A DNA stretch of 64,000 nucleotides, taken from contig OZ316899.1 of the NCBI GenBank assembly GCA_973895155.1, positions 9,608,287 through 9,672,286 on the forward strand. Reading direction: 5' to 3'. The translations under genes and the position numbers were made by a program. Below, piece by piece: positions 19,600 through 61,100 of this stretch. Every line of letters starts with the position of its first letter. Within the stretch, counting starts at the first letter, position 1. Source of the stretch: Marsupella aquatica. Taxonomy: Eukaryota > Plantae > Marchantiophyta. The notes beneath the pieces are model-generated. The model was given only the letters and a program-made list of their open reading frames with translations, ran no database searches and was not told where the DNA came from.

Positions 19600-20916
19600 T
19601 CCTCAATAACCCCATTTCCATTCCCTATACTGTAAACATCTTATCCCAAGAAAAATGTCAAAGCATACCAAGGTGAAAAGTCAGAAGTGTCTTGACTCCC
19701 AATGATATGTTCTTATGAGCTATGTTGAGTTCTTCTTTTAACTTCTTGAACAAGAACCCCAAGTAGTCTCATGATTCACACAACGTCTGGGCTAACAACC
19801 ACTGATATTTCCCCAATTCAGGCCAACTCCCCAATAACCACAATGTAACCCTCAAGAATAACCCTCAAGTGCAACCTCTTTGGATTGGTGCACTGAGTCT
19901 TGAGGAATCCATTGTCCTTTGGCTTCCCGTTAAACTCCATAAAGATTTTGTCCCTCTAGAAGAAGAAACAGGTATCAATCTTGCTACTACCACCCAAATT
20001 CATATGGAAGGCTTCACCTATACCCTTCTCTAACAGTTGGAACACCCCATCATAGATATAGATGAGGTTCCGGTCAACATCCTAGTTGCCCACAAACTCT
20101 ATTATTTAACTCCCAATCAAGGATATCCTTCCCACGCCATGCAATTGAATGAAATCTTCTAACCCAAATTCATAAAGTTTGAGAACTTGTTAGATTGCAA
20201 GGCTACAATAGCCTTGACATTCTCAGTGGGTCTTACCAGCTTCAATCTGGCTTCTGCAGGTATAGTTTCCATCCACCTGTTCTAGTTCCAATATTTGGGT
20301 GACAACGTGATTGGCTGAGCTTCGTACTCCAAATCATCATCTACAACTTCCTGGTTGGATTCCCTACCCTGACCAGCCTATGTTGCTGATAAGTTTCTAC
20401 CTTGGCCCCAACCTTGGCCTAAATTTTCTTGATTCAAGCCTGATCCCTTCTTTGCCGACGGCTTTGCCATGGCGACTCCATCTAGGACCTACTTCTTGTT
20501 GTTGGCCTTCTTAGCCACCACCTTTCAAGCCATTTCTGCTTTGCAACAATATGTTTATGGGGTTGCTGAGAATCCTCCCCTCCTAAGATCATCTTGGGTG
20601 CCCACTCCTTGTAGTCCCTGGTAGCTAGATTCCAATGCTCAATCAAGCATTGATAGACGGCTTGACGGATTGATTGTACATTCCCTTCCTCAAAGAACAA
20701 CACATTCAAATTCTCAACATTGGGTTCCCACTTGAATGTTGCATCAAATGTACTTCCCAATGATGAATGCGGTTGATGTAGTTGCCCATGACCGCTCAAT
20801 GTTTGCTCGCTCTCTCTCAGCTTGTGCCGGATTGGTCTCCTTGAATACCCTAACAATGTGTCATGCGTAGTTGAGAAATGTCCGCCATAAATGCCTTGCC
20901 TGATTGAACCTAGCCA
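19600..20916 (-). pseudogene. Old, heavily decayed homolog of the LTR-embedded gene (family G5)
   Basis: Manual translation gives (M)ARFNQARHLWRTFL...FKWEPNVENLNVLFFEEGNVQSIRQAVYQCLIEHWNL and WMETIPAEARL...GLEDFIQL...IEFVGN...IGEAF...KIDT...KDNGFLKTQCTNP, collinear with the G2 ORF. The lower coordinate is approximate. Confidence 0.7.
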
Positions 20917-21936: not shown

Positions 21937-23278
21937 TGTCACGTCGTCGGCTGCGGCCTTAACTCAGACTTCAGCTTAGACGGGCACATCCCTCGTAAAT
22001 CTGAGGGTTCGGGCAGGAAGGGAAGCACGTAATGCACCTTATTCTTGTAAACTAGCGCTAAGTGCGCATACTGCTAAATACGGACACCTCCTAGGTATGG
22101 TTTGTGTTCCGCCGCCGAAACGTACCTTAGTCGATAGCAGGATTGACCCCGGCTTAAGGGCTTCTAAGCCTTCGTGTTGTCCGCCTTCGATCCGGATTCG
22201 ATGATACAGGTCCTCAACCCGTGCTCGCAACCACTTACCCACAAGCTGCACCCTGTGCACATCTCGGGTAGTGCGTTCGGCCTGGCGCTGCCACCCATAT
22301 ATGAGAAACCCACACACATACACGCGCACATGCATACAATCTCGATTTACACGAAGGAAAATGATGGGAAAGGATTTTACTCACTACAACATATTTTGCC
22401 CTTTTGCGAAGCTCATTTGCGTCCGGACAGACGTTTGCGATTCCAGATGCTTCAAACCGTTGATGACTCAATACGCATCGCAATTTGCGATACTTGTGGT
22501 ATCGCAACTTTGGTCTTCCATGCGATTTGCATCGCAAACATTTTGCGAACTTTATTGTATCACAATATTTTGCGAAACTACAGAGATTACAAAACACATT
22601 ACGAAGGCTCCGCGACCGCTCCGAAAGTCCGAAACCACGGTAACATTAATGATGCGAAACAATTAGTATTGGAGGATGTTTGCGAAAAGGTTAGCTTCAA
22701 ACAATTTGCGATGGGTTTGTATGGCAAATGTGCGAAACGATGTGGATGGTAAATGTGGGATGGTCTGGATATCGCAAAATAGTGAAGCGTATAGTATGGA
22801 ATAATTGAGAAACGGTTTAAATGGCAGAATTGTGATTTGGTTGGGATTTGTTTAGTCTCGCAAATAGTTCGCAAACGTTTATGTTAGACTTGTGTGTGCA
22901 TCTTTAGAGTTTGAATGGGGGAGGAGGAGGGAGGGAGGTGAAAGGTGAAAGAGGGAGGAAGGGAGTTGGAAGGTGGATGAGGGACGGAGGAAGAAGGGAG
23001 TCCAAAGAGGGTTTACTAAAAATAGGAGAGACTTTAGCGAAGAGGGAGGGAGGAGAAAAAGCTATGGAGTTTTTGGAAGAGGAAGGAGAGTTTGGGTTCA
23101 AAGAGGGAGGAGGGATAAGGGAGGGAGTACCCATGTCACTTATATGCATGACCTCTTTTGAAAGTAGGAGTCCAAAATGAAAATACCTACCACACTAATG
23201 GTGTATGAAATATTAATTAAGAAACAACATGAACAATCCATGATATAGATTTTTGGTTTAAATATCCATAAGTGTCTC

Positions 23279-28399: not shown

Positions 28400-28900
28400 T
28401 AGCTCCTCCTCCTTTGTTAGCATAAAACCCATGGAAAAACCATTAAAACCCAAAAGATCCATAAAACCCATTAAAACCCATAAAACCCATGGTAAAACAA
28501 CTAAAACATTAATCTCATCTAACCTTGCTTTGCCTTTTCCAAACCCTCACCCCCAAACCTCTGACCTATTACAAAAACCTAGACCCTCACTCCCAATCCC
28601 CTTCCTCTCTTTTGTTTTAAACCCTAAACCCTTGCTTGAACCCTAAAAGCCTACAACCATAAATGCAAACCCTGCTTAAACCCAAAATTAAAGACTTAAA
28701 CCCTAAACCCAAACCCAACTTTAATCCTAAACCCTTTCCTCACTTATTAATTTTAAACCAAAACCCAACTCTTATCAAAATTAGCCTACACCCACACCAT
28801 GTATAGCTTAAAAAACGGAAGGTTTGACTGGTAATCTCGCTTTTAACCCCTAAAAAAACCAGCTTCATCCAAGACCCAACCCTAACAAACGTCGGGATTT
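28400..28900 (+). repeat. AAACCC(T)-rich, telo-box-like tract between the divergent CACTA-B genes
   Basis: Many AAACCCTA / AAAACCCA / AAACCCAA units. Confidence 0.7.
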
Positions 28901-29354
28901 GAAACGACGGAATTTCTTAATTACACAAAAGGGCACAGTATAACTTACATGGCCTAAACAAAAGGAGGAGGGAAAGAATGTGAAAAAAAATTTCGCCAGG
29001 AATTGCCACGATATTGAGAACCGACCTGCTTCGCAACCTGCTTCAGAATTTGGTCACATTATTTGCGAAGCAAAATGTTTCGCAACAGCTTCGGAAAAAT
29101 AGAGCTCGAGAGCATTTTTCGCGTCTCTGCAGCTTTGCGAAGGCTTTGCAAAGCGTGTGGTTTCGCATTGGTTTTGGAAAGTTGAGATACTAGTTGCGAA
29201 GCGGGCTGATTCACAAATTGCGATGCGGACTGCGTCGCAAATGTGTTTTGTCTGGGCATTCGGACCTTCCAGCCGGGTTACGAGGCCCATTCGACGTTTT
29301 TTGAAGTGAGGGAGGGCAGGAGGAGAGCTTGCGCGCGCTTGGTGTTGGATAGCT

Positions 29355-31396: not shown

Positions 31397-32495
31397 AGGA
31401 TGCAGATGTAGTTCACTCCATATGGCATATGGATTAGTCAAAGGATAGTGTCTTGGTATTTGATACCCCATAGGGTTTTAGAAAACCCTAATTTTTGTAC
31501 ATTCAGGGATTTTTGGCATATATAAAGTTTTGCTTTGGTATCTTCATGTGGAGCAATAAGACCCCAACCCAATTATGAACCCAAATATACAAAACCCAGC
31601 CCTCAAACTATCCTTGCGAAACACATGCGAACGCCATACTATCGCAAACTTGCCATACATTGAGTATTGGAACATTGCGATACTTTTGGTTCCGCAATTG
31701 TGCGACACCCTGACTGACGCAGTTATGCGATACCATATGAATGGCAACGGAATTGTCAAGACAACAACTTTGCAAATAAGTTATAGTTCAGAGCGCATCG
31801 CAAACCGATAAAGAGTCTGTCGAGATCGCATAAATGTGATTTATGTGCGATAAAATAAGTTTCGCAGTGTGCAAAGGTGTTGCGAAGGGGTTGCGAAAGT
31901 CCGATTGCGAAGCTGTGGGTTTCAAAGAATGCGAAAGGGTTGCGATGCGTAGCGTTTCGCAAACGCCGAAATTTCATAATTTGGTCCTTTGTTAGTTGCG
32001 ATGGGACGGGGTTCGCAAAAGGGGTCGGTAGTGTTGTAGTGACTACAAAGGGAACATATGCGTACACTTAGTTGACCCGACAGCCTCGGAATGAACAGGT
32101 TCAAGGCCGAGGGTGCACACTACAACGGAGCCCGGCTTCGCACTTGCCCGACGAGCTTAGTCCTACCCCCTCCCCTTGGTACTCTTTCATTCCCAGAGGT
32201 CAGGACTCCCCGCACATACCGCGGACGTCCAACTCTGCAACTAAAAACCCCCCCTTGCCTCTACCGAGGGGTGCACTAAATACTAAGGGATGAGGGATGG
32301 GGTGTCCTCTCGCCGAAGATTCGCTGCCTAAGGTCCTAACTAAGCTGACAGTCAGGCCGGAAAATGGCTGTCTTATTAGAAGATCCTAATCTACGCAGGC
32401 TGGACAGCATGGCAGCGCTGCTGTACCTGAGGCAGGTGCCTGTCCCAAGAGCCTGACTAAGCCAGTCCTAATCCTAATCTATTCCTACTCCGCTG

Positions 32496-35178
32496 CTAAT
32501 GCTTGGGACGCTTGCCAGAGCCGCCCGAATGGGAGCGGCCATCCCGCTGCCTTCGAAGCCTGTCATTGTCCGCCTTGAGGAGCTGGACCTGGTCCAGCAG
32601 AGATTTTTTCTCTCGCCTCGCAGCGTCCGTCTCCTCTACTGCCTCCTGACATGCCTCCTCCAGCTGCTGGGCGTCGCTCATCAGTTTACCCGCCAGCTGG
32701 TCCTGCTTCTCGGCCTCGGTTTGGAGCCGCGCCACCTCGGTCTGCAGCGTGGCTATCTCCGCCGTGTCCCGCTGGGCGCGTTCCTCGGCCTCCTCCAGGT
32801 CTTTCTGCCAGGTGACGGTTTGATTCTTCAAACTGTCAATCTGGTTCCGGAGTCGTGTAATCTCGGCCTCGTTCCCAGCTTTGGCCTGTTCGGCTAGGGC
32901 GGTAAGAGCGTGCGCCTTTGCTAACAACTCATCGGCGGCTGCAACCTTGGGTCGTAGTTGCAAAAGCTCAGCCTCTTGAGCCGCAACTTCGTTCTTTAGG
33001 TACACGGACTCCACCCGGTACCGCTCTATCCTCTGAAGGGCCACTGACTGGGCCCGATCTGCCTTTACTGCGGCAACCAACTCCTGATTGAAGAAACAGG
33101 CTACCTTCCGGGCCATGAACTCCCCGGTATCCCGGGCAATTTGATGAGAGAAATCTCCCAGAAGCCCGTTCAGAAATGTACCCGGTACGAAGAGTTCCGG
33201 GTGGTCCAGGTTGTGCCTGTTCGGAGTTGGGCACGGGCAGACGTCAACACGTGCGGGGGCCGGGGCAGTGACGTCCAGCCCTGGGGACGTAACGTTGGAA
33301 GGGGCTGGAGTGTCCTCCTGCAGCAATGTCCAGTTCTCCGGAATAGCCACCGGTGGGTCTTTGGGAGACCCGGGCTCGGGTAAGACCTCCAGCGTACCGA
33401 CTTCTGTACTTAGCCCGGCTTGTTGGGTCGCATCAACGGTTGCGACAACCGACCCATCCGGTACCTCCTTGGTTACGACTACAGCTACTTGTGGAGGTGG
33501 GGTGGGTGAAGCTGGCGTGTTCGCTGGACTTCGGGCCTCGGGTTGGGGCCGTCTCTCCAAGGCCGGGAAAACCCACCTAGCTGGGACCAGCTTTGTAACG
33601 TTGACACGGGGAAGGGTTCGTCGATCAAACCGGGCGTACCACTCAAGAATGATCTCGATGTGGCTAGCGAAATACGCCTTCCCGCCAATGTACAACGTCT
33701 TCCTTCGCCGCTCCATCTCTTCATGGAATTTCTTAGCGAAGTACGACGCCCACTTCCTAGGTCGATAGTTCTCGACCTGGATAACCTGGGCGGCGAAGAT
33801 CTCCCCCCGGGGTTCCATCATGTGGAGGGCGTACCTCTGGAACTCCAGTCGCTCAGCTATCTCGGGGATGAGGTAGGTCTTCATCACGAACCCGTTGTCC
33901 ACTGCTCCCTCTGAGGGAAAACTTGAAGATTGGTACTTGGCTCCCTTGCCCCCGGGAGCCCGTGATTCGACTCGATGGTCACCTTCGGGTAACCCAAAGA
34001 TCATCCTGAGCCGTTCTTCCATGAGGGACATACTCCTTCCCCGCAGCCGAGTATGTTGACACGCGTCGTCATAATTCCTGACGAACTCCATCATGTCCTC
34101 CCCGTAGTACCTGCAAGTGTTCCAGGGGAGGGAGGCGAGGTGCTCAAATCCCTGAGTCTTCAGGTACACCGCATGCTTGGGATGGAGGATGTTTTTGTGA
34201 ACGTTTTCCCCCATGCGGTGCATCGTCACCTTGGCTACGGCTACCGTGGCCAACGGTAACCCGAATGCAGTGGTGGATTCCTTCCTCTTCTTCTCCCGTG
34301 ACTGGCTCGGGGAAGGTGACACTTCCCCATCCTCCCGATCAGGCCTGGGTAGTGCCACTGCCGTTAGTAACGGGCCCGGGGCGGCCATGGTCACCATGTT
34401 GTCTGCCGGGGCCGCTCCTGGGGTCAGAGCAGGGGGTGGGGACGATATAGTGTCGGCCCCCTGAGCGCTTGTTCCTCTGGGCCGCCTGGTCAAGGGTGGG
34501 GTAGCCTCGTCGTCATCGCTAAGATCCATAGCGTTGATGACGGAGCATACTTGTGCTGGCTGGGCGATCGGTGGTGGGGTTTGGCTAGGCTGCGGCTGAG
34601 GCTGAAGCTGAAGCTGAGCCTGAGGTTGAGCCTGAGGTTGCATGGGTATGGGTACGGGTACGGGTACGGGTTCGACTGAGTTGGTCATGTTGGTTGATGG
34701 CCGAGTTCCCATGAAGCTCTGTAGGTGCTGGTAGAAGTTCTCCAAAGCAGGTGCAGACGACCTTGTCGAACGGGTAGTGCTGGACTCGCTGTTGATGATA
34801 GCCCAAACCTGAGCAGGGATGTGGTCGAAGTGATGTCGTTGCAAGTCGATTGTACCCGAGATATTGAAGACCTCGTCCGGAAGCCGAAGCAATGCTTCCC
34901 AGAAGCCGAAGCAATGCTTCCCAGAAACCGATATATTTGTCTCCGTTGAAGAAGTACCCAGATACCTCTGCTGGTCGGTAAAGCTCGCTCTGAGATGGGT
35001 AGTCAAAGTTAAGGATGTAGTGGTGTCGTCCTGCTAGGCGGATGGCTCTCTCGTACTCGCGTTCGATTTTGTATCGGCGCGGGTTGGCGTGTTTTAATGA
35101 GTCGGCCAAGTGCCTTCCGGTAGATAGGAACTGCGTCCATAATTGAATGGCCGAGCTGGAGAGGATCGTGTGCGACAT
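32496..35178 (-). pseudogene. LTR-embedded gene, 3' LTR copy (frameshifted by a 22-bp tandem duplication at 34880-34923)
   Basis: ORF 34585-35178 (MSHTIL...) switches into ORF 32496-35006 at the duplicated GAAGCCGAAGCAATGCTTCCCA. Contains a Pro/Gln linker, the PMD-like core GFEHLASLPW...MEFVRNYD...LRMIFGLPEG, a coiled coil and a basic C-terminus KRPKH. Confidence 0.85.
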
Positions 35179-35611
35179 TCAGAGGAGATAGTAGTGGTGA
35201 CTTAGAGCGAACGAGAGAGCTGGGGTCGAAGCTGGCGCGTGGACTGATGGACTGGTGCACTACAAAGGGTTGGCTCCCCTTTTATACCTTGAGGGCTTGT
35301 CGATCCCCCGACGTCTCCTCGACGCCCATAGGCTGAACCGCTCATGCTTGTGGTGTACCGGCCACTCCGCCGGTCTGAGTCAGCGCGTGTCAGTGGCCGC
35401 TTCTTAAGTACGTTATACGGACCCGAGGGAGGGGCCCCTCCACGCTCGTAACCCGGGTGTGCAAATAGCGACCCGCCGCCAGTCTGAACCTGAATTCCCC
35501 CTTATTGCCTAATGATGTCCTACCCATAATGATTACCTAAATACTATCGTTATGCTAATAATAGCGGCCTAAGACACTCCTAATGCGCGTGCTAAGCGCA
35601 GTTAGACCGAA

Positions 35612-38600
35612 TCACTCATTAACCGCCGTACCGGCGGCGTCACATAGCTCCCTGCTTAATTGTGAAGCGTCCTCGCGAACATCACTCTCGGCGTCATCAT
35701 CTTGATGGTGGTACTTTTTTACACGATCGTAGCTGATTCGCGTGGGGAGTAAATCGCCGGCATATGTTGCAAGCTCCAAAGATCCGTTACGGTAGATCTG
35801 ATTCACAAGGAAGGGCCCTGACCACCGGGTATGAAGCTTCCCTGGAAACTGCATGTACCTACTATCGTACAGAAGGACTAGATCGCCTGCCACGATGTCG
35901 ACCCTCCATAGTCCTTTGTCGTGCTGCTTCTTCAAAGTTGCCTGTTTCTTCACGGCGTGTCGAGCTGCTAGTAGCCGTGCTTCTTCCAAGGCTTCAATCT
36001 GATAAGCTCGGTCTGACGAACTTTCAGATTCAGGTAAGCGATCCCGAATGCTGACCCGTGGAGTGTGTACTTCAAACTCGACGGGCACCAACGAATGTTG
36101 GCCGAACACAAGAAAGTACGGGCTGTGACTCGTAGTAGTTTTGTAAGCTAGATTATACGAGTACACCGCTGCGTACAACTTATCATCCCAATCCGTTTTG
36201 TGCGCAGCTACAGTTTTGTTGAGGATCTTCCCAATGATACCATTTGCTCTCTCCGCCATCCCGTTGGCTTTAGGATGATACGGGGTAGTCTTGCGGTGCT
36301 TGACTAGGTAACGCTCCGTAAGCTAGGCTACGGTGTCATTGAGGAAGTGGGTTCCACGGTCGCTTACCAATTCTAAGGGCGGGCCGAATCGGGTGAAAAT
36401 CTGTTCGTATAAGAATCTAGCACTGGTTGCGGCGTCGTCCTTTACCGTAGCCCGCGCTTCGACCCACTTGGTGGAGTATCAATAGCTAGTAGGATGTACC
36501 TGCATCTTTGCCTTCAGGCAACGGGAGTAAACGGCCCGATATAATCAATTCCCCATTTTTCGAATGGTGCCAATGGAAGCACAGATGTGAGCGGGTGATG
36601 ATGAGCCCGCCTCGGGGCCCCAGCTCGCTGACACAAGTCACAGCCCTTAATGAAGCGATGTACATCCCGATGCAACGTAGGCCACCAATACCCCAAGTCC
36701 AGAATCTTTCGGGCTGTCGTGACCACCGCGAAATGGCCTCCAGCTTCTTCTTCATGCAGGGCCCGCATCACGATAAGCGTCTCCTTATACTCTAAGCAGC
36801 GTCGTAACTTTCCATTAATACCTTCCTTATGTAGGTGACCCTGTATCATGACGTAAGGCCCGGCGTTCCGTAAAAACACAACGGCGGCCTCCTGATTGAT
36901 GCCGTCAGGGATGCGGCCCGTTAAAAGGAAGGTGATTATTGAGCCGTACCACGTTGGTGTCCCCTCCCCTACGTGGAACAACTCCTCATCCGGAAAAATA
37001 TCATCAATTGGCTGATCGACTGGTACGCCGTCCAGCCGTGAAAAGAAGTCGGCATTGAGGTGTGCCTTTCCTGGCCGAACCCGAACTTCGTAGTTAAATT
37101 CCTGGAGAAGTAGCACCCAACGGGCTATCCATCCCATTACGTCTACTTTGTTGACCATGTACTTCAGGCTGTCGTGATCCGTGTGGAAGATGACCTTGTA
37201 GCCGAGCAGATAGTGCCGGAACTTCTTACATGAGTAGATTATGCCCAGTGCCTCTCGATCCGTGGGGGAATAATTTTTTTCGGCTGTGAATAATTGACGG
37301 CTAGCGAAGTAGATGGGGTGATCGCGTCCATCCGTATCAAGCTGACTAAGCACAGACCCGATACAGAACCCTGACACGTCGACATACACGTGGAACTCCT
37401 TGTTCCAGTCTGGAGTGACCATGATAGGTGCGGTGGTGAGTCTTTTACGGAGTTCTTTGAAAGCAACCCGTCTCCTTGGGGTCTCCTCGTTCACCGCGTC
37501 CTTTTTCATCATCTCTGTTAAGGGCAAAGCTATTTTAGCAAAATCTTTAATGAACCGACGGTAATACCCTACGCAGCCCAAGAAGGATCGTACTGCTTTT
37601 TGATCCACGGGGAACACCACTGCCATCCAGGCCGCAACTTTCTCTTGGTCCACCTCAATGCCCCGTTTGGACGCACGATGCCCGAGTAACACCCCCTCCT
37701 CTACCCCGAAGAAGCATTTGGTGGGATGTAGTTTGAGGTTAACATCTCGGCATCGTTGCAACGTTCGTCTTAGGTGTTCGGGGTGCATGGCAACGGTTCC
37801 GAAGATGGCAAAGTCATCGATAAATATCTCCAGAAATTCCCGTAGGAAATCGTGGAAGATATTCATCATAAGGCGCTGAAACATGGCCGGGGCGTTACAC
37901 AGACCGAAAGGCATCCTCCGAAATGCGAAAGTCCCCCACTCCGTAGTGAAAGTTGTTTTGAGCTGATCCGCGAGGCGAATCCAGATTTGGTTATAACCTG
38001 AATACCCGTCAAGAAATGTATAGATTTCATTTCGGGCTACCATATCTAGAACCATATCCGTGAATGGTAATGGGTAATGGTCTTTTCGGGTTGCGTCGTT
38101 CAGCTTACGGTAGTCTTGACAAATACGAATCTTAGGTTTTCCATCCGTACCTCCCTTCTTTGGTACAATGACAATGGGAGAGACCCAGTCGCTGGCCATT
38201 ACCGGGTAGATGATATCGGCGGCGAGGAGACGATCAATTTCCTCCTTCACTAAGATGGAGTACCTCGGGTTCATGCGACGTTGTCGCTGCCGTACCGCAT
38301 GGGCTCCTAGGTTCAGATCGATCGTGTGTACTCCCAACTCGGGGGAGACGCCTGTTAAATCATGATGACTCCATGCAAACACATCTTCATATTCCTTGAG
38401 CAAAGCTTGGATGGATTTTTCAGCCTCCCCTGTCAGAGCGTGGCCCAGGTTAAAAGATTTGTCCATCCCAATGGTGTACTTCCGGTAGTGCTCCTTCTTG
38501 ATGACTTCAACCTGGTTTCGCAGGCTCGGGTCCAGGCTCGCATCAAGCTCAGCTAACCGAACTCCTCCGTACATGGGTGGAACCGGGATTGGTCTCGGGA

Positions 38601-38619
38601 TTGGAGTTACTTCCTCCAA
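35612..38619 (-). pseudogene. pol: G4 RT-RNase H-integrase (frameshift near 36515)
   Basis: RICQDYRKLN, FLDGYSGYNQI, MPFGLCNAP, FIDDF, VYVDVSG, TDHDSLKY, HEEEAGGHF...CDLC, WGIDYIGP, GKLHTRWSGPF. The stop codon lies 33 nt inside the LTR. Confidence 0.93.
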
Positions 38620-38646
38620 TTGCGGAATGGACGGATCCCATGAGAC

Positions 38647-41617
38647 TCATTTCTTATATCTCGGTCTTGAGTTTTCGGCCTCGGGCGGTTGTTGGACTAG
38701 TTCGTGGTCACGAGGCTCTGCAATGGTAGAAGCAGCCTCGGCTCCCTGCTTAGCTGGAGCCGTGTCCTCCGTCTCGACAAGTTGTTCGTGCGTTTCCTCA
38801 TCCCCGGTAGTAGATGTGCTTGGGGTGGACTCAATGGCAGCCCTCGGGTAATTTAGGAGATGTGTTTCACGGGTTGCTTCAACTCCGAAGACATCTTCCT
38901 CGGACAGGGACGAGATGAGTTCAATCATATTGAGTTCCTCTTCCTCCGAGGTCTCCGAATCATATTCCTCGGGTCCTTGTGGGGTTTCTCCCTGATAATC
39001 GTCCATTGCCCATGATACCCGTATGGTGGGTTCCCCGAACCGTAGCTCCTTCTTTCCCCAATCCGTGACTACGCGGCCACCGTACAGCCACGGCCTGCCC
39101 AGAAGAACCGGGTAAGAGGAGGGACGAACCGGCCTCATAACTAGGAAGTTGAGATAGAACTCCACCCCTCCCACCAGAGTGAGCACTCGTGTGAGCGTGC
39201 CTAATGGGAGGACCCTTGCCCCGTTTGCTAATCTGATAGCTCGGGCTGTGGGTTGATACGTGAGGTATCCTAACTTGACTGACGTTTCTTCAGTCATGAT
39301 GTTGACTCCCGCTCCTCCGTCTACAAGAACCATCTTGATGGTACAATTATTAATTTCGATCGAGATGTCTGGCGCTCCAAGGTCCTCGCATATCATGTTG
39401 CAGTCCGCGATCCCAACTCGGGGTAGTCTCCTCCTTCGGCGACCCATGAGCAACTCCCTTAGTTGTCGTCTGTACTATGGGTTGTTCTGCAGCAGTTGCC
39501 CCACCGTCGCTGTAACCGGGCAACTCTTCACGTCCTCCTTAATATCATAGTCCTCCTTCGTTTCTTCCTTCGGCTGCTGCTTGGCTTCCTCTTGTTTATC
39601 TTGCTTTTCTTGCTCCTATCGCCGGGCTGTCTCGGCTGCTTTGATGTCCTTATCGATTGCCTTCTGGTATTCCCGAGCTTTGTAAGCCTCCAGCTGTTTC
39701 TTTACCAATTCTTCGATGCGGGGGAAAAATAGCCTTGGGTCATCCCGTCGGTAGTCATCGTCCTTCTCCGGGGGTATATCTATCGTTGGCTGCACCGGAG
39801 TAGTATCTTGCTTTTTCCTGCATTTCTCCTCCTACTTCTCTTCCTTCCGTTCAGCTCTTGTTGACACACGATAGCACTCAGCCTCGTCAGATGGATTAGG
39901 GTGTTCCGCCACGTCCACCAGATTCACCCACTCGGTGTTGTCATCTTGCCATTCTACAGCAATCATTTGGACGACTGCATCGCTCGTGGCCGGTCCAGCC
40001 TGGGCCGGTCAAGCTGCGCTCGTTCGAGCAGCGATTACCAACGGACAGTTGGCCGTGGAATGAGCCTCCGTTTTGCAGACTTGACATAGTGGGGTGCCTC
40101 AGCCATCTCCCTGACGTCTTGGTTTGGTGCATTCCCTCGCAAAGTGTCCTGGCTTTTCACAGTTATAACAAACCGGGGATCGCCAAATCCCTGGCTTAGG
40201 AGGGATGCTCGGGTTACTGATAACCTGGAAACTCCGGCCATTGTTTGGGTAGGGGTACGCAGTTCTACCCGCTAAATTACGCGGACCTATCGTTGAAATC
40301 TGGTACACGGAATCAGGAGGGTCCTCAAAGAAATACTCCGTGGACTCCGATTCGGGACCCGGGTTGTCAACATCATCCAGCTCTACTTGGTAAACTCGGT
40401 TCTTCCACCTTGGGCATTCCTGCACCACATGGCCGGATTGGAAACACTTTGAACACCATGCATGGGCTCGAATCTTAGATGGCTTCTTCTTCTCCACCGG
40501 CTCTTCCGCAAGATGTACTGACAGTGCTTTGAGTCGATCCGTGATTTCATTCAGCTTGTCTGCTTCGGCAGCCTTTGGATCTGGTATCGTTCTTTGCGCC
40601 CGGGGTTTGATCTTCCCCTCCTTCTTCACTCATCTCTTCTTCTTTTTGCTCCGGCATCCGCTCTCCCAGTCACTTCCTGATGAACTGGAGGTAGAGGATC
40701 CGGTGCTTGAAGCTGAATCCGAACTGGATTTCGTCTCCAAGCTGGACGAGGTCGAACGATGTTTCTTCTTCTTCTTGCGTTTCTTCTTCCTCTCGTCGTC
40801 CGATTCGGAGTCACTGTCACTGAAGGTCTCGTACTTACCCTTCTTGCGGCGTGCTCGCTGGCTCCGCCGGGAGTTATAGGTGGACTCCCGGTAAGTTTCG
40901 GCGCACGCTATGGCCGCCTACATTGAAATTGGATTATTTTGGCGTACCCAAAATTGCATATTCGTGGGCAAACCATGAAGGAACCATGTAAGCTGGAGCG
41001 CGTCTCCCGGCCTGGGCCGGATCTTGGCTGCAAGTTTCTGAAACTTCTGAATGAACTTCCGCAGGGACTCCTTCTTTCCCATGCGAAGCTGGCCAATCTT
41101 TAATAGAGAACGCTGTTCTGATCCAATGGCACGAAACTCCTGCAGCAATGCAGCTTGGAATTGTGCCCATGTAGTCCCGAGTGGCAACGAGTTGTACCAT
41201 GGACGAGCTTCTCCCCGCATCACTCCCGGGAGGACAGTTAGCTTAATGGCGTCTTCTCCATTAGCTTTAGCAGTGGCTTCAAACTCATCCAACCATTCAT
41301 CCGGATCATCCCCATGACGCGCCCTTGAAAGGTTGATAATGAAATCGCGATCGTTGCGATATTTGTGGAGGAGCTTGAGCAGCGCGGGCCATCGGTGGAG
41401 TGGCTGCCATAGGTGGTGGTGGAGGTGGCGGTGGTGGTGGCGGAGGAACCGCAGCAGGACCGGTCGAACCGGACCCCAAAGGTCCCGGGGGTATGTTCAT
41501 ACGTCGGGGCGATTGCGAGTCCTCCGAGCCCAAAGAATCAGAACTTGTCGTGGTTGCACTTTCTCATTCGCTGGTCAATCTCCTCAAGTAAGCTGCTTGA
41601 GAGCGAGTGACGGGCAT
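38647..41617 (-). pseudogene. gag: G4 gag-protease (several stops and frameshifts)
   Basis: Start MPVTRSQAAY (compare G1 MPTTRSQAL), MRGEARPWYN, knuckles CSKCFQSGHVVQEC and CYNCEKPGHFAREC, protease VLVDGGAGVNIM. Confidence 0.88.
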
Positions 41618-41710
41618 TTACTCATATAAATGCGATGGTTAGTACTACGTCCTGATGTATCCTGCCTAGGTGAATACGCACATGTCTCCCCTCTACGATA
41701 TGTAGAGTGC

Positions 41711-41728
41711 CCCCTCCATCTAGCGCCA
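41711..41728 (-). promoter_or_regulatory. Primer binding site of G4
   Basis: Minus strand TGGCGCTAGATGGAGGGG, 12 nt inside the LTR end at 41741. Confidence 0.75.
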
Positions 41729-42639
41729 AAACAAAGGCTATGTCACGTCGTCGGCTGCGGCCTTAACTCAGACTTCAGCTTAGACGGGCACATCCCTCGT
41801 AAATCTGAGGGTTCGGGCAGGAAGGGAAGCACGTAATGCACCTTATTCTCGTAAACTAGCGCTAAGTGCGCATACTGCTAAATACGGACACCTCCTAGGT
41901 ATGGTTTGTGTTCCGCCGCCGGAACGTACCTTAGTGGATAGCAGGATCGACCCCGGCTTAAGGGCTTCTAAGCCTTCGTGCTGTCTGCCTTCGATCCGGA
42001 TTCGATGATACAGGTCCTCAACCCGTGCTCGCAACCACTTACCCGTAGGCTGCACCCTGTGCACGTCTCGGGTAGTGCGTTTGGCCTGGCGCTGCCACCC
42101 ATATACGAGAAACCCACACACATACACGCGCACATGCATACAATCTCGATTTACACGAAGGAAAATGATGGGAAAGGATTTTACTCCAAAGGGAACATAT
42201 GCGTACACTTAGTTGACCCGACAGCTTCGGAATGAACAGGTTCAAGGCCGAGGGTGCACACTACAACGGAGCCCAGCTCCGCACTCGCCCGGCGAGCTTA
42301 GTCCTACCCCCTCCCCTTGGTACTCTTTCATTCCCAGAGGTCGGGACTCCCCGCACATACCGCGGATGTCCAACTCTGCAACTAAAAACCCCCCCCTTGC
42401 CTCTACCGAGGGGTGCACTAAATACTAAGGGACGAGGGACGGGGTGTCCTCTCGCCGAAGATTTGCTGACTAAGGTCCTAACTAAGCTGACAGTCAGGCC
42501 AGAAAACGGCTGTGTCTTATTAGAAGATCCTAATCTACGCAGGCTGGACAGCATGGCAGCGCTACTGTACCTAAGGCAGGTGCCTGTCCCAAGAGCCTGA
42601 CTAAGCCAGTCCTAATCCTAATCTATTCCTACTCCGTTG

Positions 42640-45300
42640 CTAATGCCTGGCACGCTTGCCAGAGCCGCCCGAATGGGAGCGGCCATCCCGCTGCCTTCGA
42701 AGCCTGTCATTGTCCGCCTTGAGGAGCTGGACCTGGTCCAGCAGAGATTTGTTCTCTCGCCTCGCCGCGTCCGTCTCCTCCACTGCCTCCTGACATGCCT
42801 CCTCCAGCTGCTGGGCGTCGCTCGTCAGTTTACCCGCCAGCTGGTCCTGCTTCTCGGCCTCGGTTTGGAGCCGCCCCACCTCGGTCTGCAGCGTGCCTAT
42901 CTCCGTCGTGTCCTGCTGGGCCCGTTCCTCGGCCTCCTCCAGGTCTTTCTGCCAGGTGACGGTTTGATTCTTCAAACTGTCAATCTGGTTCCGAAGTCGT
43001 GTAATCTCGGCCTCGTTCCCAACTTTGGCCTGTTCGGCTAGGGCGGTAAGAGCGTGCGCCTTTGCTAACAACTCATCGGCGGCTGCAACCTTGGGTCGTA
43101 GTTGCAGAAGCTCAGCCTCTTGAGCCGCAACTTCATTCTTTAGGTACACGGACTCCACCCGGTACCGCTCTATCCTCTGAAGGGCCTCTGACTGGGCCCG
43201 ACCTGCCTTTACTGCGGCAACCAACTCCTGATTGAAGAAATAGGCTACCTTCCGGGCCATGAACTCCCTGGTATCCCGAGCAATTTGATGAGAGAAATCT
43301 CCCAGAAGCCCGTTCAGAAATGTACCCGGTACGAAGAGTTCCGGGTGGTCCAGGTTGTGCCTGTCCGGAGTTGGGCACGGGCAGACGTCCACACGCGCGG
43401 GGGCCGGGGCAGTGACGTCCAGCCCTGGGGACGTAACGTTGGAAGGGGCTGGAGTGTCCTCCTGCAGCAATGTCCGGTTCTCCGGAATAGCCACCGGTGG
43501 GTCTTTGGGAGACCCGGGCTCGGGTAAGACCTCCGCCGTACCAACTTCTGTACTTAGCCCGGCTTGTTGGGTCACATCAACGGTTGCGACAACCGACCCA
43601 TCCGGTACCTCCTCGGTTACGACTACAGCTACTTGTGGAGGTGGGGTGGGTGAAGCTGGCGTGTTCGTTGGACTTCGGGCCTTGGGTTGGGGCCGTCTCT
43701 CCAAGGCCGGGAAAACCCACCTAGCTGGGACCAGCTTTGTAACGTTGACATGGGGAAGGGTTCGTCGATCAAACCGGGCGTACCACTCAAGAATGATCTC
43801 GATGTGGCTAGCGAAATACGCCTTCCCGCCAATGTACAACGTCTTCCTTCGCCGCTCCATCTCTTCATGGAATTTCTTAGCGAAGTACGACGCCCACTTC
43901 CTAGGTCGATAGTTCTCGACCTGGATAACCTGGGCGGCGGAGATCTCCCCCCGGGGTTCCATCATGTGGAGGGCGTACCTCTGGAACTCCAGTCGCTCAG
44001 CTATCTCGAGGATGAGGCAGGTCTTCATCACGAACCCGTTGTCCACTGCTCCCTCTGAGGGAAAACTTGAAGATTGGTACTTGGCTCCCTTGCCCCCGGG
44101 AGCCCGTGATTCGACTCGATGGTCACCTTCGGGTAACCCAAAGATCATCCTGAGCCGTTCTTCCGTGAGGGACATACTCCTTCCCCGCAGCCGAGTATGT
44201 TGACACGCGTCGTCATAATTCCTGACGAACTCCGTCATGTCCTCCCCGTAGTACCTGCAAGTGTTCCAGGGGAGGGAGGCGAGGTGCTCAAATCCCTGAG
44301 TCTTCAGGTACACCGCATGCTTGGGATGGAGGATGTTTTTGTGAACGTTTTCCCCCATGCGGTGCATCGTCACCTTGGCTACGGCTACCGTGGCCAACGG
44401 TAACCCGGATGCAGTGGTGGATTCCTTCCTTTTCTTCCCCCGTGACTGGCTCGGGGAAGGTGACACTTCCCGATCCTCCCGATCGGGCCTGGGTAGTGCC
44501 ATTGCTGTTAGTAACGGGCCCGGGGCGGCCATGGTCACCATGTTGTCTGCCGGGGCCGCTCCTGGGGTCAGAGCAGGGGGTGGGGACGATATAGTGTCGG
44601 CCCCCTGAGCGCTTGTTCCTCTGGGCCGCCTGGTCAAGGGTGGGGTAGCCTCATTGTCATCGCTAAGATCCACAGCGTTGATGACGGAGCGTACTTGTGC
44701 TGGCTGGGCGATCGGTGGTGGGGTTTGGCTAGGCTGCGGTTGAGGCTGAAGCTGAAGCTGAGCCTGAGGTTGAGCCTGAGGTTGCATGGGTATGGGTACG
44801 GGTACGGGTACAGGTTCGACTGAGTTGGTCATGTTGGTTGATGGCCGAGTTCCCATGAAGCTCTGTAGGTGCTGGTAGAAGTTCTCCAAAGCGAGTGCAG
44901 ACAACCTTGTCGAACGGGTAGTGCTGGACTCGCTATTGATGATAGCCCGAACCTGAGCAGGGATGTGGTTGAAGTGATGTCGTTGCAAGTCGATCGTACC
45001 CGGGATATTGAAGACCTCGTCCGGAAGCCGAAGCAATGCTTCCCAGAAACTGATATATTTGTCTCCGTTGAAGAAGTACCCAGATACCTCTGCTGGTCGA
45101 TAAAGCTCGCTCTGAGACGGGTAGTCAAAGTTAAGGATGTAGTGGTGTCGTCCTGCTAGGCGGATGGCTCTCTCGTACTCGCATTCGATTTTGTATCAGC
45201 GCGGGTTGGCGTGTTTCAATGAGTCGGCCAAGTGCCTTCCGGTAGATAGGAACTGCGTCCATAATCGAATGGCCGAGCTGGAGAGGATCGTGTGCGACAT
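42640..45300 (-). pseudogene. LTR-embedded gene, 5' LTR copy (886 codons, one CGA>TGA stop near 45197)
   Basis: ATG 45300 is in frame with the 798-aa ORF 42640-45036; the sister LTR has CGA at the stop position. Confidence 0.87.
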
Positions 45301-45400
45301 TCAGAGGAGATAGTAGTGGCGACTTAGAGCGAACGAGAGAGCTGGGGTCGAAGCTGGCGCGTGGGCTGATGGACTGGTGCACTACAAAGGGTTGGCTCCC

Positions 45401-45408
45401 CTTTTATA
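45401..45408 (-). promoter_or_regulatory. TATA box of the LTR-embedded gene
   Basis: TATAAAAG lies 101 nt upstream of the ATG, with identical spacing at 35279-35286 and in the diverged solo LTR at 58771-58778. Confidence 0.7.
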
Positions 45409-45770
45409 CCTTGAGGGCTTGTCGATCCCCCGACGTCTCCTCGACGCCCATAGGCTGAACCGCTCACGCTTGTGGTGTACCGGCCACTCCGCCGGTCTGA
45501 GTCAGCGCGTGTCAGTGGCCGCTTCTTAAGTACGTTATACGGACCCAAGGGAGGGCCCCTCCACACTCGTAACCCGGGTGTGCGAATAGCGACCCGCCGC
45601 CAGTCCGAACCTGAATTCCCCCTTATTGCCTAATGATGTCCTACCCATAATGATTACCTAAATACTATCGTTATGCTAATAATAGCGGCCTAAGACACTC
45701 CTAACACGCGTGCTAAGCACAGTTAGACCGAATCACTCATTAACCTCTATACCGGCGGCGTCACACTCAC

Positions 45771-53940: not shown

Positions 53941-56900
53941 TTAGCTTGTAGAATCTCATGATCGGGCTCATGAGATACATGTCACTGACTAGCCGTGTTG
54001 GACCTTAGCTAGGATAGCATATGTTGAGTAGGGTGACTTGGCATCAGATATGCCACCCCTCTTGTGTATTGGGTTCCTTCAAGCCCTAACATTTTGGTAT
54101 ATCCACCTATATACTTGCCATCTTATAAAAAACATTTGCCTTCCATATTGGGTCCACTGCCAAGAGAAATCCCTCGCAAAACATTGATTGAAGTCGTGTT
54201 CCCATGAAAGTGCAAACCCATTGCAAACTTGGATAACTAGGAAAGACTGAAATGACTCGGATCGCTATTATAGAACCAAGTAACATCACAAGTTGCGAAC
54301 ACAAACGCTTCACAACTTCTGGCCTAAACTATCTCACAAGTTCCGATCCAATTTGTTTCGGAAGTCCCCATCAAATTTATTTCGCATAAGAGTGATCTTA
54401 TAAGGCTTGCTAGTTGCCAACACCATGACATCACAAATACCAAACGCATTCCCATCACAAACATGTAGCAAACCTTTCAGCTTCACAAAAATCAACGTCG
54501 GTAACAAAGGACCGTGCGGCATAATGCGAAGCATTTGCGACAATTTTGAACTCACAAGTGTTTGGCAAGTTGCGAGAAAATTTGGCTAGGAAGTTGCCAT
54601 GGTGTTGCGATGGCGTTGCGATGGTCCGCGTGCGAAGGTTTTAACTTCGCAATTTGGGATGGTGTAGTGATGCGTGTTAGTTCGCAAGTGCCGGAATTCT
54701 GTTTATCGGGCCTTTGTTGATTGCGATGTGTATGGGTTTGCAAAAGGGGCCGATAGTGTAGTAGTGCCATCTTGTCATGCCATAAGCTTTGCCCTTGCGC
54801 GGATTTTGGTTTAGACGGGCATAATCTTCATTAGTTTTGAGGGTTCGGGCAAGGAGGGATGTGCAAACTGAACCTTATTCCCGTAATCTAGCGCTAAGTG
54901 CGCCTATTCCTACATATGGAAATATCATGGGTATAGTTTGTGTTCTGCCGCTGGAACGTACCTTAAGTCAATAGCTAGATTGACCCCGGCTTAAGGGCTT
55001 CTAAGCCTTCGTAAATTCCGCCTTCAATCCGGATCCAATGATATGGGTATCCAACCCGGGCTTGCAACCACCATCCGCAGCCGACACCCCATGCACAGCT
55101 AGGATGATGCGTTTGGCCAGGCATTCTCTACCCATATAAGAGATTCATGCATGAAACGGAACTCACTCACATAAAATATTGGTTTACACAAAGGGAATGG
55201 TGGGAAAAGACTTTACTTTGGAAACCGTCATACACATATACACGGTTGACTCAACATCTCTTGAGTAAACAGGCCCAACGACAGAGCGACATACACTACA
55301 ACGGAGCTCGGCTCCGCACTCGCCCAGCAAGCTTAGTCGTACCCTCCCTCCTTAGTATCTTTTACTCACAAAGGCCGGGACTCCTCGCGCATCCTACGGA
55401 TACCCGGTTCTGAAACTAAAATCCCCCTGTCTCTACCAAGGGGTGCACTAAATACTAAGGGCCGGGGTCCGGACCGACCACGTGCTTGAATCTAAGCTAT
55501 CCCCTAGATTCTAAACTTTGCTAATTGTCAGGCCGTAAAATGGCGTGTCTTATTCTAAGATCCTAACTACAAAGGTTGGTTGGATAGGACAGCGCCGCTA
55601 ACTAGTTTTGGCGCTTGTCCTTATTGCCTGACTATCCTATTCCTAACTCTATCCTACACCTATCCCGCCGCTAATGTCTGGCACGCTTGCTAGATCCGCT
55701 AGAGTTGGACTTGGAGCGGCCATCCCGCTGCATTTAGGACGTCTATCTCGGTTGTGTCCCGTTGGGCCCAAGCATCGGCCTCCTCCACATCCTTTTGCCA
55801 GATGATGGCTTGTCCCTTCAAACCGTCAATCTGGGTTTGAAGCCGTGCAATCTTGGCGTCCTTCCTGACTCTGGCCTGCTCTGCCAAGGATGCCTAGGCC
55901 CTAGCTTTGGCCACCTGATCTTCAGTGGCCGCTACCCAAGGCCACAACAGTTGGAGTTCGGTCTCCCGAGCTGCAACTTTGTCTTTGAGGTGGGCAGACT
56001 CAATCCAATATCGCTCTATTCTCTACGTAGCCTCGGCTTGCGCATATCCTGCCCGCACGGCTGCAACCAACTCCTGGTTGAAGAAGTAGGCCACCTTCCG
56101 TGCCATGTACTCCCCGGTATCCCGTGCAATTTGTTGAGAGAAGTCTCCCAGTAACACATTCAAAAATGTGCCCGATGCAAAGAATTTTGGGCTTTCCAGA
56201 CTATGCCCCTCTGGGTTTGGGCAAGGACAGACCTCAGCTTGCGTGGGAGTTGGAATGGTGACGTCCAGCCCTTGAAGTATGGCGGGAGAGGGGGTTGGGT
56301 TTGCTGGGGCTGGGCAGTTCTCCTGAATAGTCGTGGAGGTTGGCAGGATGTCCTCTACAACTGCAGTCTTGGGCTTGGGTCCGGCCTCTGCCGCCTGACT
56401 TCAATTGCGTTGACCCGATTGATCGCGTCCAGGTTCGCAATGACTGCATCATCTGGTACATTTGGAGGGGCGACAACGGCTGATTGCGGGGCCGGGGTAG
56501 CAGGTCTCACGACCGCTAGACTTTGGGCCTCAGGCTGGGGTCGCCTCTCCTAGGCCGGGAATATCCACCGCGATGGGGTCAGACTGGGCTCGTTGATACG
56601 AGGGAGGCTTTGGCGGTCAAAACGAGCGTACCACTCAATGATGATTTTGATGTGGCTAGCATAGTACGCCTTCCCGCCGAGGTACAAAGTCTTACTCTCC
56701 GCTCCATCTCATCATGGAACTTCTTGGCAAAGAAGGACGCCCACTTCCTAGGCCGATAGTTCTCAACTTGGATTACCTGGGCGGCGGATATTTTGCCCCT
56801 CGGTTCCATCATGTGGAGGGCGTACTGCTGGAACTCCAGTCGTTCTGCTACCTCCGGGATGAGGCATGTCCTCATCAAGAATCCGTTGCCCACTGCTCCC

Positions 56901-57369
56901 TTGACCGGGAAGCTAGAGGACTAATACTTGGCTCCCTTGCCCCCGGGAGCCCGTGATTCTACCCGATTTATTCCTTTGGGTAGGCCAAAGATCATCTTAA
57001 GACGTGCCTCATTGAGAGACATCACTCTCCCGTGCACTCGGGTTTGTTGGCGGGCTTTGTCAAAGTTCTGGATGAACTCCGTCATGTCCTGCCCGTAGTA
57101 CCTGCTTCCATTCTGAGGGAGAGAGGCAAGGTGCTCAAGCCCTTGGGTCTTTAGGTAGCACGCATGCTTGGGGTGGAGGATGTTCTTGTGGACATTCTCC
57201 CCCATGCGATGCATGGTCAGCTTGGCCACCACAAGGGCAGCCCGGATACGGCTGCGGGTTCCTTTCTCTTCCTACCCCGAGACTGGTTCTCAGGGTGACT
57301 TGAAGAGGGGGACATCTCCCCATCCTCTCTATTGGGCGGCGGCAGCACTACCGCCGTTAACACTGGTGG

Positions 57370-57656
57370 GGGGTATTTACAAACGACGTGAAACAGCAAA
57401 CAGTAACAGGAAACAAAAACTGGTGTGGAATTTTTTTTTGAACCTTTTTTTTTTTGCCAAAAATATTTTTTTGCTAGCGCCCGGCGCTGGTAATGCTAGC
57501 GCCCAAAGCTAGCCAAAAAATTGTTGTCGATAATTTCTTTTTTGAAAAATGTGATTTTTTAGGAAATATTTTTACATTGTCATTTTTCTGGTAACAGTAA
57601 ATTTTTGCTGGTACTAGTAAACCTGTTTCCTGTTTATTGTCACGCATGTCATACCC
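57370..57656. mobile_element. MITE-like element related to 10798-11099, opposite orientation
   Basis: 8-bp TSD ACTGGTGG (a 9-bp reading CACTGGTGG is also possible); ends GGGGTAT...ATACCC; AAACAG repeats; shared central CTAGCGC...CTAGCCAAAAA block. Confidence 0.8.
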
Positions 57657-57825
57657 ACTGGTGGTGGGGCTGCTACTGTCACCGTGTTATCCACCCGGGC
57701 TTGTGTGAGTGGCGCTGGGTTGCTCGGCGCATGCTGATTTGCACCTCACGGTCACCGGTTCAAGGGAGGTGAGCCTCCTCGTCTTTGGAACTGATGTTCA
57801 CCGCGTTTACCACGGATCGCACCTT

Positions 57826-58106
57826 GGGGGGTTAACTTAGTGTATATTTTGGGGTACCATGTGTGATCCGAGTCTAATATAAACACACCTATTTTATGAT
57901 GTGAATATTCCAAAAATATTCTCTATTTTCAATATCAATAACCTATTTTACTTTATAAAAGGGAAAAATTAGAGAATGTTCTATAAATATTGGTCTATAA
58001 TACCTTCTTTTGCTTCCTACGCTTTTTAAAAATTTAGCTAATTTCTATGAAAAATACCTATTTTGGATTGCACATGGTTCCTAAGATTTTTGATAGCCAA
58101 CCCCCC
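57826..58106. mobile_element. AT-rich MITE-like insert with imperfect TIRs
   Basis: GGGGGGTT...ACCATGTGnnATCC is inverted at both ends; absent from the G4 LTRs; no clean TSD, although GGATCGCACC occurs near both sides. Confidence 0.6.
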
Positions 58107-61100
58107 CGAGGATCGCACCCAAAGGGGTGGTGCAACCGGTGTTGGAAATCGGCTTGGGTGAGGCCGAGGTGGTGTTGGCGCGGGCACCAATGAGTTGGCG
58201 CCGGTTGTAGCTGGAAGAGGCGCCATATGATTGAGCAAGTCCAAGGGGAAGCCGAGTGAGGTTAGGATAGATGTCTTGCCCGTAGTTGCGGTACCAAACT
58301 GATAGTCAATAAAAGCGTGGACTTTGGCGGGGATATGATTGAAGTGGTGTCGTTGTAAGTTGATCGTGCCCGGGAGGGTGAAGACCTTATCCGGAAGCCA
58401 AAGGAGTGCTTCCTGGATACTGACGTACTTTGGGCCGTCAAAGAAGTACTCGGAGATCTCGTCGGCATGATAGAGCTTGCTCTGGAACGAGAGGTTGAAA
58501 TCTCCGTTATAGTGAGAGCGCCCGGCTAAGCAGATAAGTTGTTTGTACTGCCTTTCGGTTTCGTACCGGTGCGGGTTGACCTCAGCCAGTGACTTTGCTA
58601 AATGATTTCCGATGGATAGAAATTGAAGCCAAAACCGAAGGGCAGAATTGGACATAATCATGACAGACATATAGGGAACGACGGCAGGTGACTGAGGAGC
58701 AAACGAGTAAACTGAGATCAAAGCTAGCGCGAAGAGTGAAGTGGTGGTGCTTCGCAAGAGAATGGCCCACCTTTTATACCCAGAGGGCTCGTCGGCCGAA
58801 TGGTCCCTTCCTCCTTCTGATAGGCCGATCCTATCACGCTTGTAGTGCACCGGCCACTCCACAGGTCCGGGTCAAAGCGTGTCAACGAGCCGCCCTCCCC
58901 TTGATTTGTTATATGGACCCAAGGGGGCATCCCTACACGCTTGTGATCCGGGGTACGAATGGTGCTCCGCCACCACCCCGAGCGTAAATACTCCTTATTG
59001 ACTAATGATGTCCTGGTCGTGGTTACTACCTATTTTAGTGTCGTTGTGCTAATTATTACGGACTACTATGTCCTTAGTGCACGTGCTAAGCACGGATTAG
59101 ACCGAATCACTCATTAACCGTCGTGCTGGCGGTGTCACACATCTCAATACTTAGAAAAAGAGATTATTGTTCCTAAACCCTAAACTGTGTGGCTACCAGT
59201 TCTAAGAGTTTTGCCCAATAAGTAATATTCTATGTGTAGGAAGTGAAATGAATAGTGACTCTCAAATCTCACTCCGTTACCCCCCATTATAGATGTAAGT
59301 TTTGTACAGTTAGGCATTGGAATACTACCATTTTTACTGTGTCGTATGACCCTGAGTAGCCATTATTTATTGAAATCTATAATCTACTTATACTAAGCCT
59401 AAGTCTACACTGGTTATATATATATATTCTTTAAAAACAGGACAACTAAGCTAATAACATATACAATAACAAGCACGTATCCCTATTATTTACATAGCGA
59501 TCCCTGTCAAGGCATTACATTGATGGTCAAGGACATGTCATGGTGGTCTTGTATGCGGGCAAGGACGCTTGGCCAAGCGCCCTATTTCAGTTGTGCACGG
59601 GTCAGAAGTTGCAAATAGGGGTTGCGATTGGATTGACAGCCGCATCATTGGAGCCGGATCAAAGGCAGGTAATCCAAAGCTTAGAAGTCCCTAAGCCAGG
59701 GTCGATTGAGGTATTGACTGCAAGTATGTTCTAGCGGCACAACACAAACTATACCCAAGTAACTTGTAATACATACAGCTATGCGCACTTAGTGCTAGTT
59801 TACACGAATAAGCGCGGACAGCACGTCTCTCCTTGCCTAAACCCTCAATACAAACAAAGTTTATGTTACATTTAAAGGAAGAGTATGTCACTTAAGGACT
59901 AAACTTTGGTGTGACAAACACACTCTATAAGGACATTCCTCCTCTGAGTAAACCAAGTCTTCTGGTCCTGGTTGAGATGGCTTAAATTTGGACAACTGTC
60001 TACAAGCTCCAATTGCAGATGGTTTCCTAGCTATTTGTTGACCAGGTTTAGTTGGGTGTTGTGAACCAGGTCACCAGACGCTAGTACGTTGGACTTTGGT
60101 TTGTTGTGCACAACTCTTCCTTGTGTAGACAAAATAGTATTTATGTGCACATTTGTTGTGTATATAGAGCTGCATTTTGGTGCAAAGATTGTTGTTTAGA
60201 CACTTATGCATTTGCCTGGATGGTGTTTGCTTGAATTGCTAAAATTGATGCACAAGGCTACTGATGAGCAAGTCAGAGTGATCTGATTAATGATATTATC
60301 AAATTGACAATCTTCAATGTGCCAAACCCCATGTACATAGAAAGAATTTCAGCAAGTAATGATAGGATGTCTCAAAATTAAAAAAGGTGGTTGCATTGGT
60401 GGCAGTGGCAGCACACACCTTTGCTCAAGTGCAATTATATAAATTCTCTTATTGTGTAGTGTGCTGCAATGTCTGAGACCCTGGTCCTTTCGAACATGTT
60501 CCATTCCAATGGCCATATCTTTGATGAGACTCATGCTCACCTTTTGACTCTTCATCTTCTCCTTCAAATTGAAGGTGCCATAGGTTTGGTTCTCGAGGGC
60601 TCACTCCAAGGGAGATCCCATATCATGTACAAAGTTTTCAAGTAATAAGCACCATAAAACTTAAGAAAATAAAATGATATTTATAATTTTAAAACCCCTA
60701 ACTTTATGGGATTTCCTAGGACTATTCCCAAATTTGGTATCAAGAACCCAAGTTCTTGTAGTTCTCAAAATTGAATTAAAACGCTCATATTTTTCTTAAA
60801 CAATTTCTTTAAGTCTACCCCCAAGTTAATGAGAAAAACCCTAACTTCTTTGTGCGCGATGGGTCAAAAGCAAAGAAGTGAGGACCCCTAGGTTTGGTTC
60901 CTCCGTGAACCAATGCTGTCATTGTCACCATGGTCATCATTGATTGCATGTTTTGATCTAACAATCTTTCCAAACCTACATACACAAATACATCGATTTG
61001 TAGACGTCTTGTATCTGGACATGGCTCGACCATTCATCACAGCGAGAATCTAGGCACCAATCAAACTTTTCAAAACTCCTACCACTGTAATAGAGGAAGA

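Follow-up and report, generated by a model that had tools for sequence, protein, structure and literature searches.

A gene with a predicted VANC-like core lies inside the long terminal repeats of a liverwort Ty3/gypsy retrotransposon

Genes that lie in or overlap U3 are familiar from MMTV sag and HIV nef. The accessory open reading frames (ORFs) of plant non-chromovirus Ty3/gypsy retrotransposons, such as PMD-A of Ogre/Tat, the extra ORFs (eORFs) of Athila/Retand (PF10536, PF03078, PF04195) and Transposase_32 (PF20167), form a second group. In the descriptions compared here, these extra ORFs sit internally, either upstream of gag or downstream of pol and ahead of the 3' LTR (PMC7264820, PMC6317226), and the PMD frame of Ogre is likewise placed in the internal region (PMC7264820, PMC6317226, PMC5418596). 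Published models give PMD and VANC a common fold. VANC21 and the other VANC proteins (DUF1985) are products of VANDAL Mutator-like DNA transposons and have been described as dicot-specific (PMC13547354), with VANC21 reported to recognise short motifs in non-coding DNA of the transposon that encodes it, stripping silencing marks from that family alone (PMC10398659). PMD-C domains, found in the angiosperm host proteins MAIN, MAIL1 and MAIL2, are reported to resemble DUF1985 of VANC and to oppose Polycomb silencing (bioRxiv 2024.09.27.615353), while VANC and the Athila domain have been modelled as coiled-coil oligomers (PMC13547354).

The window analysed here is a 64,000-nucleotide stretch of the liverwort Marsupella aquatica (contig OZ316899.1, positions 9,608,287 to 9,672,286). 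Its central element has the following parts:

41741..45765, minus strand: LTR A (5' LTR), 4025 bp, TG...CA
32042..35644, minus strand: LTR B (3' LTR), 5' piece, with a TATA box at 35279-86 and the gene at 35178->32496
21937..22381, minus strand: LTR B, 3' piece, beyond a CACTA insertion
45766..45770, plus strand, second copy at 21932-21936: target site duplication (TSD) CTCAC, bracketing the entire element
41712..41728, minus strand: PBS-like site starting TGG, 12 nt past LTR A
35645..35657, minus strand: PPT-like purine-rich tract abutting LTR B
35612..41700, minus strand: internal region with broken gag (Retrotrans_gag, zf-CCHC), protease, RT-RNase H and integrase

LTRs A and B both start with TG and finish with CA, belong to one minus-strand element and are 96.6–97.3% identical in the window self-comparison (K2P 0.027). 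The 4-kb LTR with a TSD proposed in the initial annotation was borne out, 41741-45765 pairing with 21937-35644 between the two copies of CTCAC, except that LTR B is not one continuous block, being divided by a CACTA transposon (22382-32041, TSD ACT). The element is a non-chromovirus Ty3/gypsy retrotransposon, with direct TG...CA LTRs, a TSD in the 4–6 bp range, PBS, PPT and a 6.1-kb internal region in which a domain search confirmed the Ty3/gypsy order gag-PR-RT-RH-INT, and with no chromodomain match in its integrase in Pfam. Unlike in Tat/Ogre, no archaeal-type RNase H (the mark of Tat/Ogre/Retand) was found by Pfam in pol, RT_RNaseH being followed directly by Integrase_H2C2; pol is colinear with that of homolog P0104, which likewise has no archaeal-type RNase H listed. 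The closest named RT-RH matches are from Calypogeia fissa (66%) and Riccia sorocarpa (54%), with weaker matches in seed plants. Because the integrase stop falls 32 nt inside the 3' LTR, no space is left for an extra ORF between pol and that LTR, and none was found there; in contrast to the eORFs of Ogre/Tat and Athila/Retand, the accessory gene is missing from the internal region and is instead doubled in both LTRs. The LTR-PBS spacer is long (12 nt, 41729-41740) and is longer still in an element at 1-3200 (3180-3198), and the internal region starts with TAGC and ends with GCTA (35645-35648), extending the terminal inverted repeat.

The gene carried by LTR A comprises:

42640..45300, minus strand: accessory gene frame of 886 codons, from ATG at 45300 to the stop at 42640, with a stop at codon 35
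44926..45300, minus strand: N-terminal helical domain, codons 1-125, conserved in homologs
44425..44442, minus strand: basic patch RGKKRK, codons 287-292, NLS-like (RGRKRK in copy C)
43732..44394, minus strand: globular core, codons 303-523, with a predicted VANC21/PMD-like fold
42691..43203, minus strand: C-terminal coiled coil, about codons 700-870, with weak coiled-coil Pfam matches
45401..45408, minus strand: TATA box, TATAAAAG, 358 nt from the 5' end of LTR A

As first described, the frame fills two thirds of the LTR (2661 of 4025 bp, 66%) in the sense of gag-pol, and all parts of the proposed architecture were recovered: helical N-domain, Pro/Gln linker, RGKKRK patch, globular core and coiled coil. 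The N-terminal domain gave no confident fold match, and the basic patch is a candidate NLS. The gene had also been called complete, which fails for all three copies examined (A, B and C); 886 codons is the length of the frame, not of an open ORF. Copy A has an in-frame stop at codon 35 (45196-45198), copy B is thrown out of frame near codon 85 by a tandem duplication of 22 nt (34880-34931), and copy C combines an insertion of about 0.9 kb with seven in-register stops and several frameshifts. Since neither A nor B shares its break with the other LTR and the A-vs-B differences are neutral (20/22/22 by codon position), they would fit decay after insertion.

Related sequences elsewhere in the window are listed below, of which solo LTRs C and D show that the gene belongs to the LTR:

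54773..59139, minus strand: solo LTR C, TG...CA, TSD CATCT, about 70% identical to A, TATA box at 58771-78
from 58670, minus strand: decayed gene copy in solo LTR C
3755..8470, minus strand: solo LTR D of a distant family, 4716 bp, TSD GTTTT
N-domain from 8093, core 7555-6929, coiled coil 6335-5238, minus strand: broken paralog in D
19640..20916, minus strand: decayed D-like paralog F

In the window self-comparison the match to LTR C, at about 70%, spans 54811-59153. Solo LTR D was inserted into the LTR of another element, with the empty site present at 10449-10453, and the core of its paralog is 27% identical (E 3e-17) with a weak N-domain match. The expectation that every insertion carries two gene copies (in LTRs A and B) and that solo LTRs retain the whole cassette is upheld by C and D, both TSD-flanked and both gene-bearing. 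The counter-explanation offered with it, namely that the true LTR is short and the block a separate insertion, is refuted. Contigs of four of four sequencing runs cover the D block end to end far more deeply than its flanks, and in a comparison of four runs for LTR A those of three do likewise (one run is possibly the window's own sample), a depth that does not equal copy number; the gene-bearing block behaves as a single repeat unit. The gene thus occurs at both ends of the full element as well as in the solo LTRs of two families, and decays after insertion. At position 8388 in D, the contigs of one run continue with different letters, hinting that this solo LTR has lost part of its 5' region.

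Several other elements of the window deserve mention. A four-level nest occupies 20917-54766, where paralog F was entered by an old CACTA element, this by the LTR element (in the DUF4216 region of the CACTA) and the 3' LTR in turn by a younger CACTA, which is related to the old one (77% identical in part). The old CACTA (20917-54766, TSD CCA) and solo LTR C (TSD CATCT) inserted a few bases apart, both at the apparent start codon of paralog F (20914-20917, 54766-54773, 59140-59144). A different Ty3/gypsy element (~11800-19566) contains a broken C5 DNA methyltransferase domain 5' of RT (14475-15326, plus strand, PF00145, E 2e-9) and a PHD finger past the integrase (18462-18779, plus strand, PF00628, E 8e-12); DNMT-bearing retrotransposons have been reported from dinoflagellates and charophytes (PMC5890265), whereas this one has a liverwort host. 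An element of a related family (1-3051, minus strand) retains an open gag-protease frame of more than 1000 codons, with 64% DNA identity in the protease region, and its own LTR shows no sign of the accessory gene. Two related AT-rich insertions (10798-11100 and ~57390-58300; 71% over 220 bp) interrupt two different LTRs and possibly form one MITE-like family.

Purifying selection on the frame, proposed as a check, proved strong: dN/dS between A and C is 0.24 (bootstrap 0.20–0.31; 750 of 886 codons alignable), against 1.10 and 1.72 in the two other same-strand frames. Region by region, the lowest ratios fall in the core (0.15) and the helix/coiled-coil part (0.18, codons 641-886); the N-domain (0.23) and the first linker (0.30) come next, and the second linker has the highest (0.71). 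The LTR-borne frame is a real gene that evolved under purifying selection. A search with the core profile retrieved 79 proteins among 1.84 billion representatives, and the 13 named representatives among the 30 homolog clusters examined are all from liverworts (11 Calypogeia fissa, 2 Riccia sorocarpa). One homolog, P0082, is a natural uninterrupted protein of 906 aa in which the N-domain, linker, basic patch and core all recur, followed by the coiled coil and a basic tail; the N-domain also precedes the core in three Calypogeia proteins outside the profile-building set (E 4e-11 or better), and domain order is kept down to 27–32% identity. In the Riccia sorocarpa gene models P0061 and P0069 the core is joined to, and follows, a DDE_Tnp_4 transposase fragment, so PIF/Harbinger DNA transposons may be further carriers of the domain, or else these models may fuse neighbours.

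The AlphaFold model of the core was matched to the VANC21-DNA crystal structure (PDB 9LNJ/9LNK) with moderate scores and a clear gap to the next match, VANC21 being its only structural neighbour at 10% sequence identity. We therefore predict a VANC21/PMD-like fold, through which the protein probably shares a fold superfamily, via VANC, with MAIN, MAIL1 and MAIL2, to which no sequence match was found. A link to PMD/Transposase_32, the earlier label of the core, emerges only by way of homologs and predicted fold; the window protein itself has no Pfam match to either. The suggested comparison with PF10536 gave no match at gathering score on the window protein, on 48 of the 79 homologs or on P0082/P0089. 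For PF20167 (gathering score 45 bits) the window protein had no match and 4 of 48 homologs had weak ones (17–30 bits, best E 4.6e-7), with hhalign linking the family profile at 97.7% to one homolog carrying such a match; no Pfam gathering threshold is reached, in contrast to the eORFs of Ogre/Tat and Athila/Retand. DUF1985 had no sequence match in the window protein or the 48 homologs, the only lead being an ESM feature score of 0.81. The protein further differs from VANC in its extra N-terminal domain and in the position of its gene, inside the terminal repeat of a retrotransposon, and its named homologs are from liverworts. VANC-style tandem target arrays were not found in the non-coding parts of LTRs A and C, and a dispersed TTAG excess exceeded the shuffle threshold in one of three LTRs.

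Based on the predicted VANC21 fold and the literature on VANC21, PMD-C and the Athila domain, we suggest, with a probability of about 0.5, that the LTR protein is a nuclear, oligomeric DNA binder, most likely protecting the LTRs of its own family from silencing. Transcription would run from the TATA box to a polyadenylation region within the 3' 0.9 kb of that LTR; the protein would be imported into the nucleus by the basic patch, would oligomerise by the coiled coil and would counter methylation or Polycomb silencing by sequence-specific binding to the LTRs of its own family. Every solo LTR whose frame is open would be a source of the protein in trans. An anti-silencing role had been guessed in the initial annotation; the fold match lends it independent support, and the absence of VANC-style tandem arrays counts against it, as does a TTAG excess above threshold in only one of three LTRs.

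For the layout of transcription, close to an even chance is given to an arrangement compatible with either function: the element would have just one promoter, at this TATA box, with a U3 of about 0.4 kb and with the gene inside a very long R or U5. In that case the gene would head the genomic RNA as its first ORF, in the manner of Ogre ORF1 or Retrosat2 ORF0, rather than being a U3 gene with a private promoter, and its expression from a solo LTR would require a polyadenylation site 3' of the stop. TATAAAAG occurs at 35279, 45401 and 58771, always 101 nt before the ATG and with a leader free of indels, so the three-copy spacing first noticed stands, but A and B are one insertion and the copies thus represent two independent lineages. 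Neither LTR A nor LTR C (where the box lies 362 nt from the LTR 5' end) has a second TATA[AT]A[AT] match anywhere, so this box may be the LTR promoter itself rather than the gene's own, which favours the single-promoter layout. The grass elements Retrosat2, RIRE3 and RIRE8 are similar in having LTRs longer than 3 kb, a TATA near the 5' end, many solo LTRs and an extra ORF, and sequence motifs served to place a TATA close to the 5' end of the 3.2-kb Retrosat2 LTR and to give it an R of 2 kb; compared by description only, its ORF0 is given in the text consulted as upstream of gag-pol and is not placed in the LTR (PMC3485330). Against this layout, TATA-like sites lie close to each end of solo LTR D (8412, 8375, 3901), as two promoters and a U3 gene would predict, and an 886-codon upstream ORF would hamper gag translation unless spliced out. 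Moreover, the 3' non-coding 0.9 kb, with a TG-rich stretch and blocks conserved across families, is 75% conserved, above synonymous sites (dS ~1), and so holds cis elements. A fragment of the LTR 3' end in opposite orientation (59644-59865, plus strand) also has the conserved non-coding blocks. Like MMTV sag and HIV nef, the gene lies in the LTR and hence at both ends of the element, but those proteins are unrelated and much shorter, and placement in U3 is here putative.

We regard as unlikely a role for the same gene and fold in the replication cycle, where the protein would bind LTR cDNA ends or host chromatin and aid nuclear import or target-site choice of the integration complex. The integrase without a chromodomain match would suit such a role, as would the nesting of several window elements in other transposons, although nested insertions are common in TE-rich regions. 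Nuclear import and regulation have also been proposed for plant aORF proteins (PMC7264820), but the sole structural neighbour is a silencing-related DNA binder of a DNA transposon, and the core following DDE_Tnp_4 in two Riccia gene models suggests use by unrelated transposons. Less probable again is self-repression, a copy-number brake fed by the growing pool of solo LTRs, in which the dose of an LTR-borne gene would scale with total LTR number. The PMD proteins MAIN and MAIL1 are needed for TE silencing (PMC5418596), yet TE reactivation in mail1/main is tied to reduced MORC1 expression and MAIN/MAIL1 oppose Polycomb (bioRxiv 2024.09.27.615353), and both gene-bearing LTR families are deeply covered by the runs' contigs, with depth again distinct from copy number. 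A functionless captured or inserted passenger copied along with the LTR, as the breaks in every window copy and the neutral A/B differences might suggest, is highly improbable and largely refuted by dN/dS of 0.15–0.24 between subfamilies, the conserved domain order and the uninterrupted homolog, neutral A/B divergence being what decay after insertion predicts.

The domain superfamily and the idea of an extra ORF are already known, while three features appear to be undescribed, namely that such an ORF sits within the LTR, that it persists in solo LTRs and that a liverwort retrotransposon protein has a predicted VANC-like fold; in the open-access literature searched, we found neither a plant element with a gene inside its LTR nor a VANC-like retrotransposon protein in bryophytes. 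Extending the anti-silencing reading, we tentatively propose, as possible rather than probable, that these LTRs are self-contained anti-silencing modules, a single repeat combining a promoter, a VANC-like gene and the sites bound by its protein, that solo-LTR formation scatters trans-active cassettes, and that the VANC/PMD fold is an old anti-silencing domain of mobile elements already present in liverwort retrotransposons, not a eudicot invention from a captured MAIN-like gene. If so, solo-LTR formation, normally the host's removal route, would spread cassettes that keep the family active.

The function of plant Ty3/gypsy extra ORFs is a long-open question, and VANC of DNA transposons is the best-characterised sequence-specific anti-silencing system in the literature compared. 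The present family is a retrotransposon candidate for such a system: there is a structural hypothesis for its protein, and its own LTR is an obvious target. The liverwort homologs bear on the host or transposon origin of the PMD/VANC fold, which Ikeda et al. (PMC5418596) left open. Annotation that masks LTRs would conceal such genes, and a solo LTR, beyond a promoter relic, may be a whole gene.
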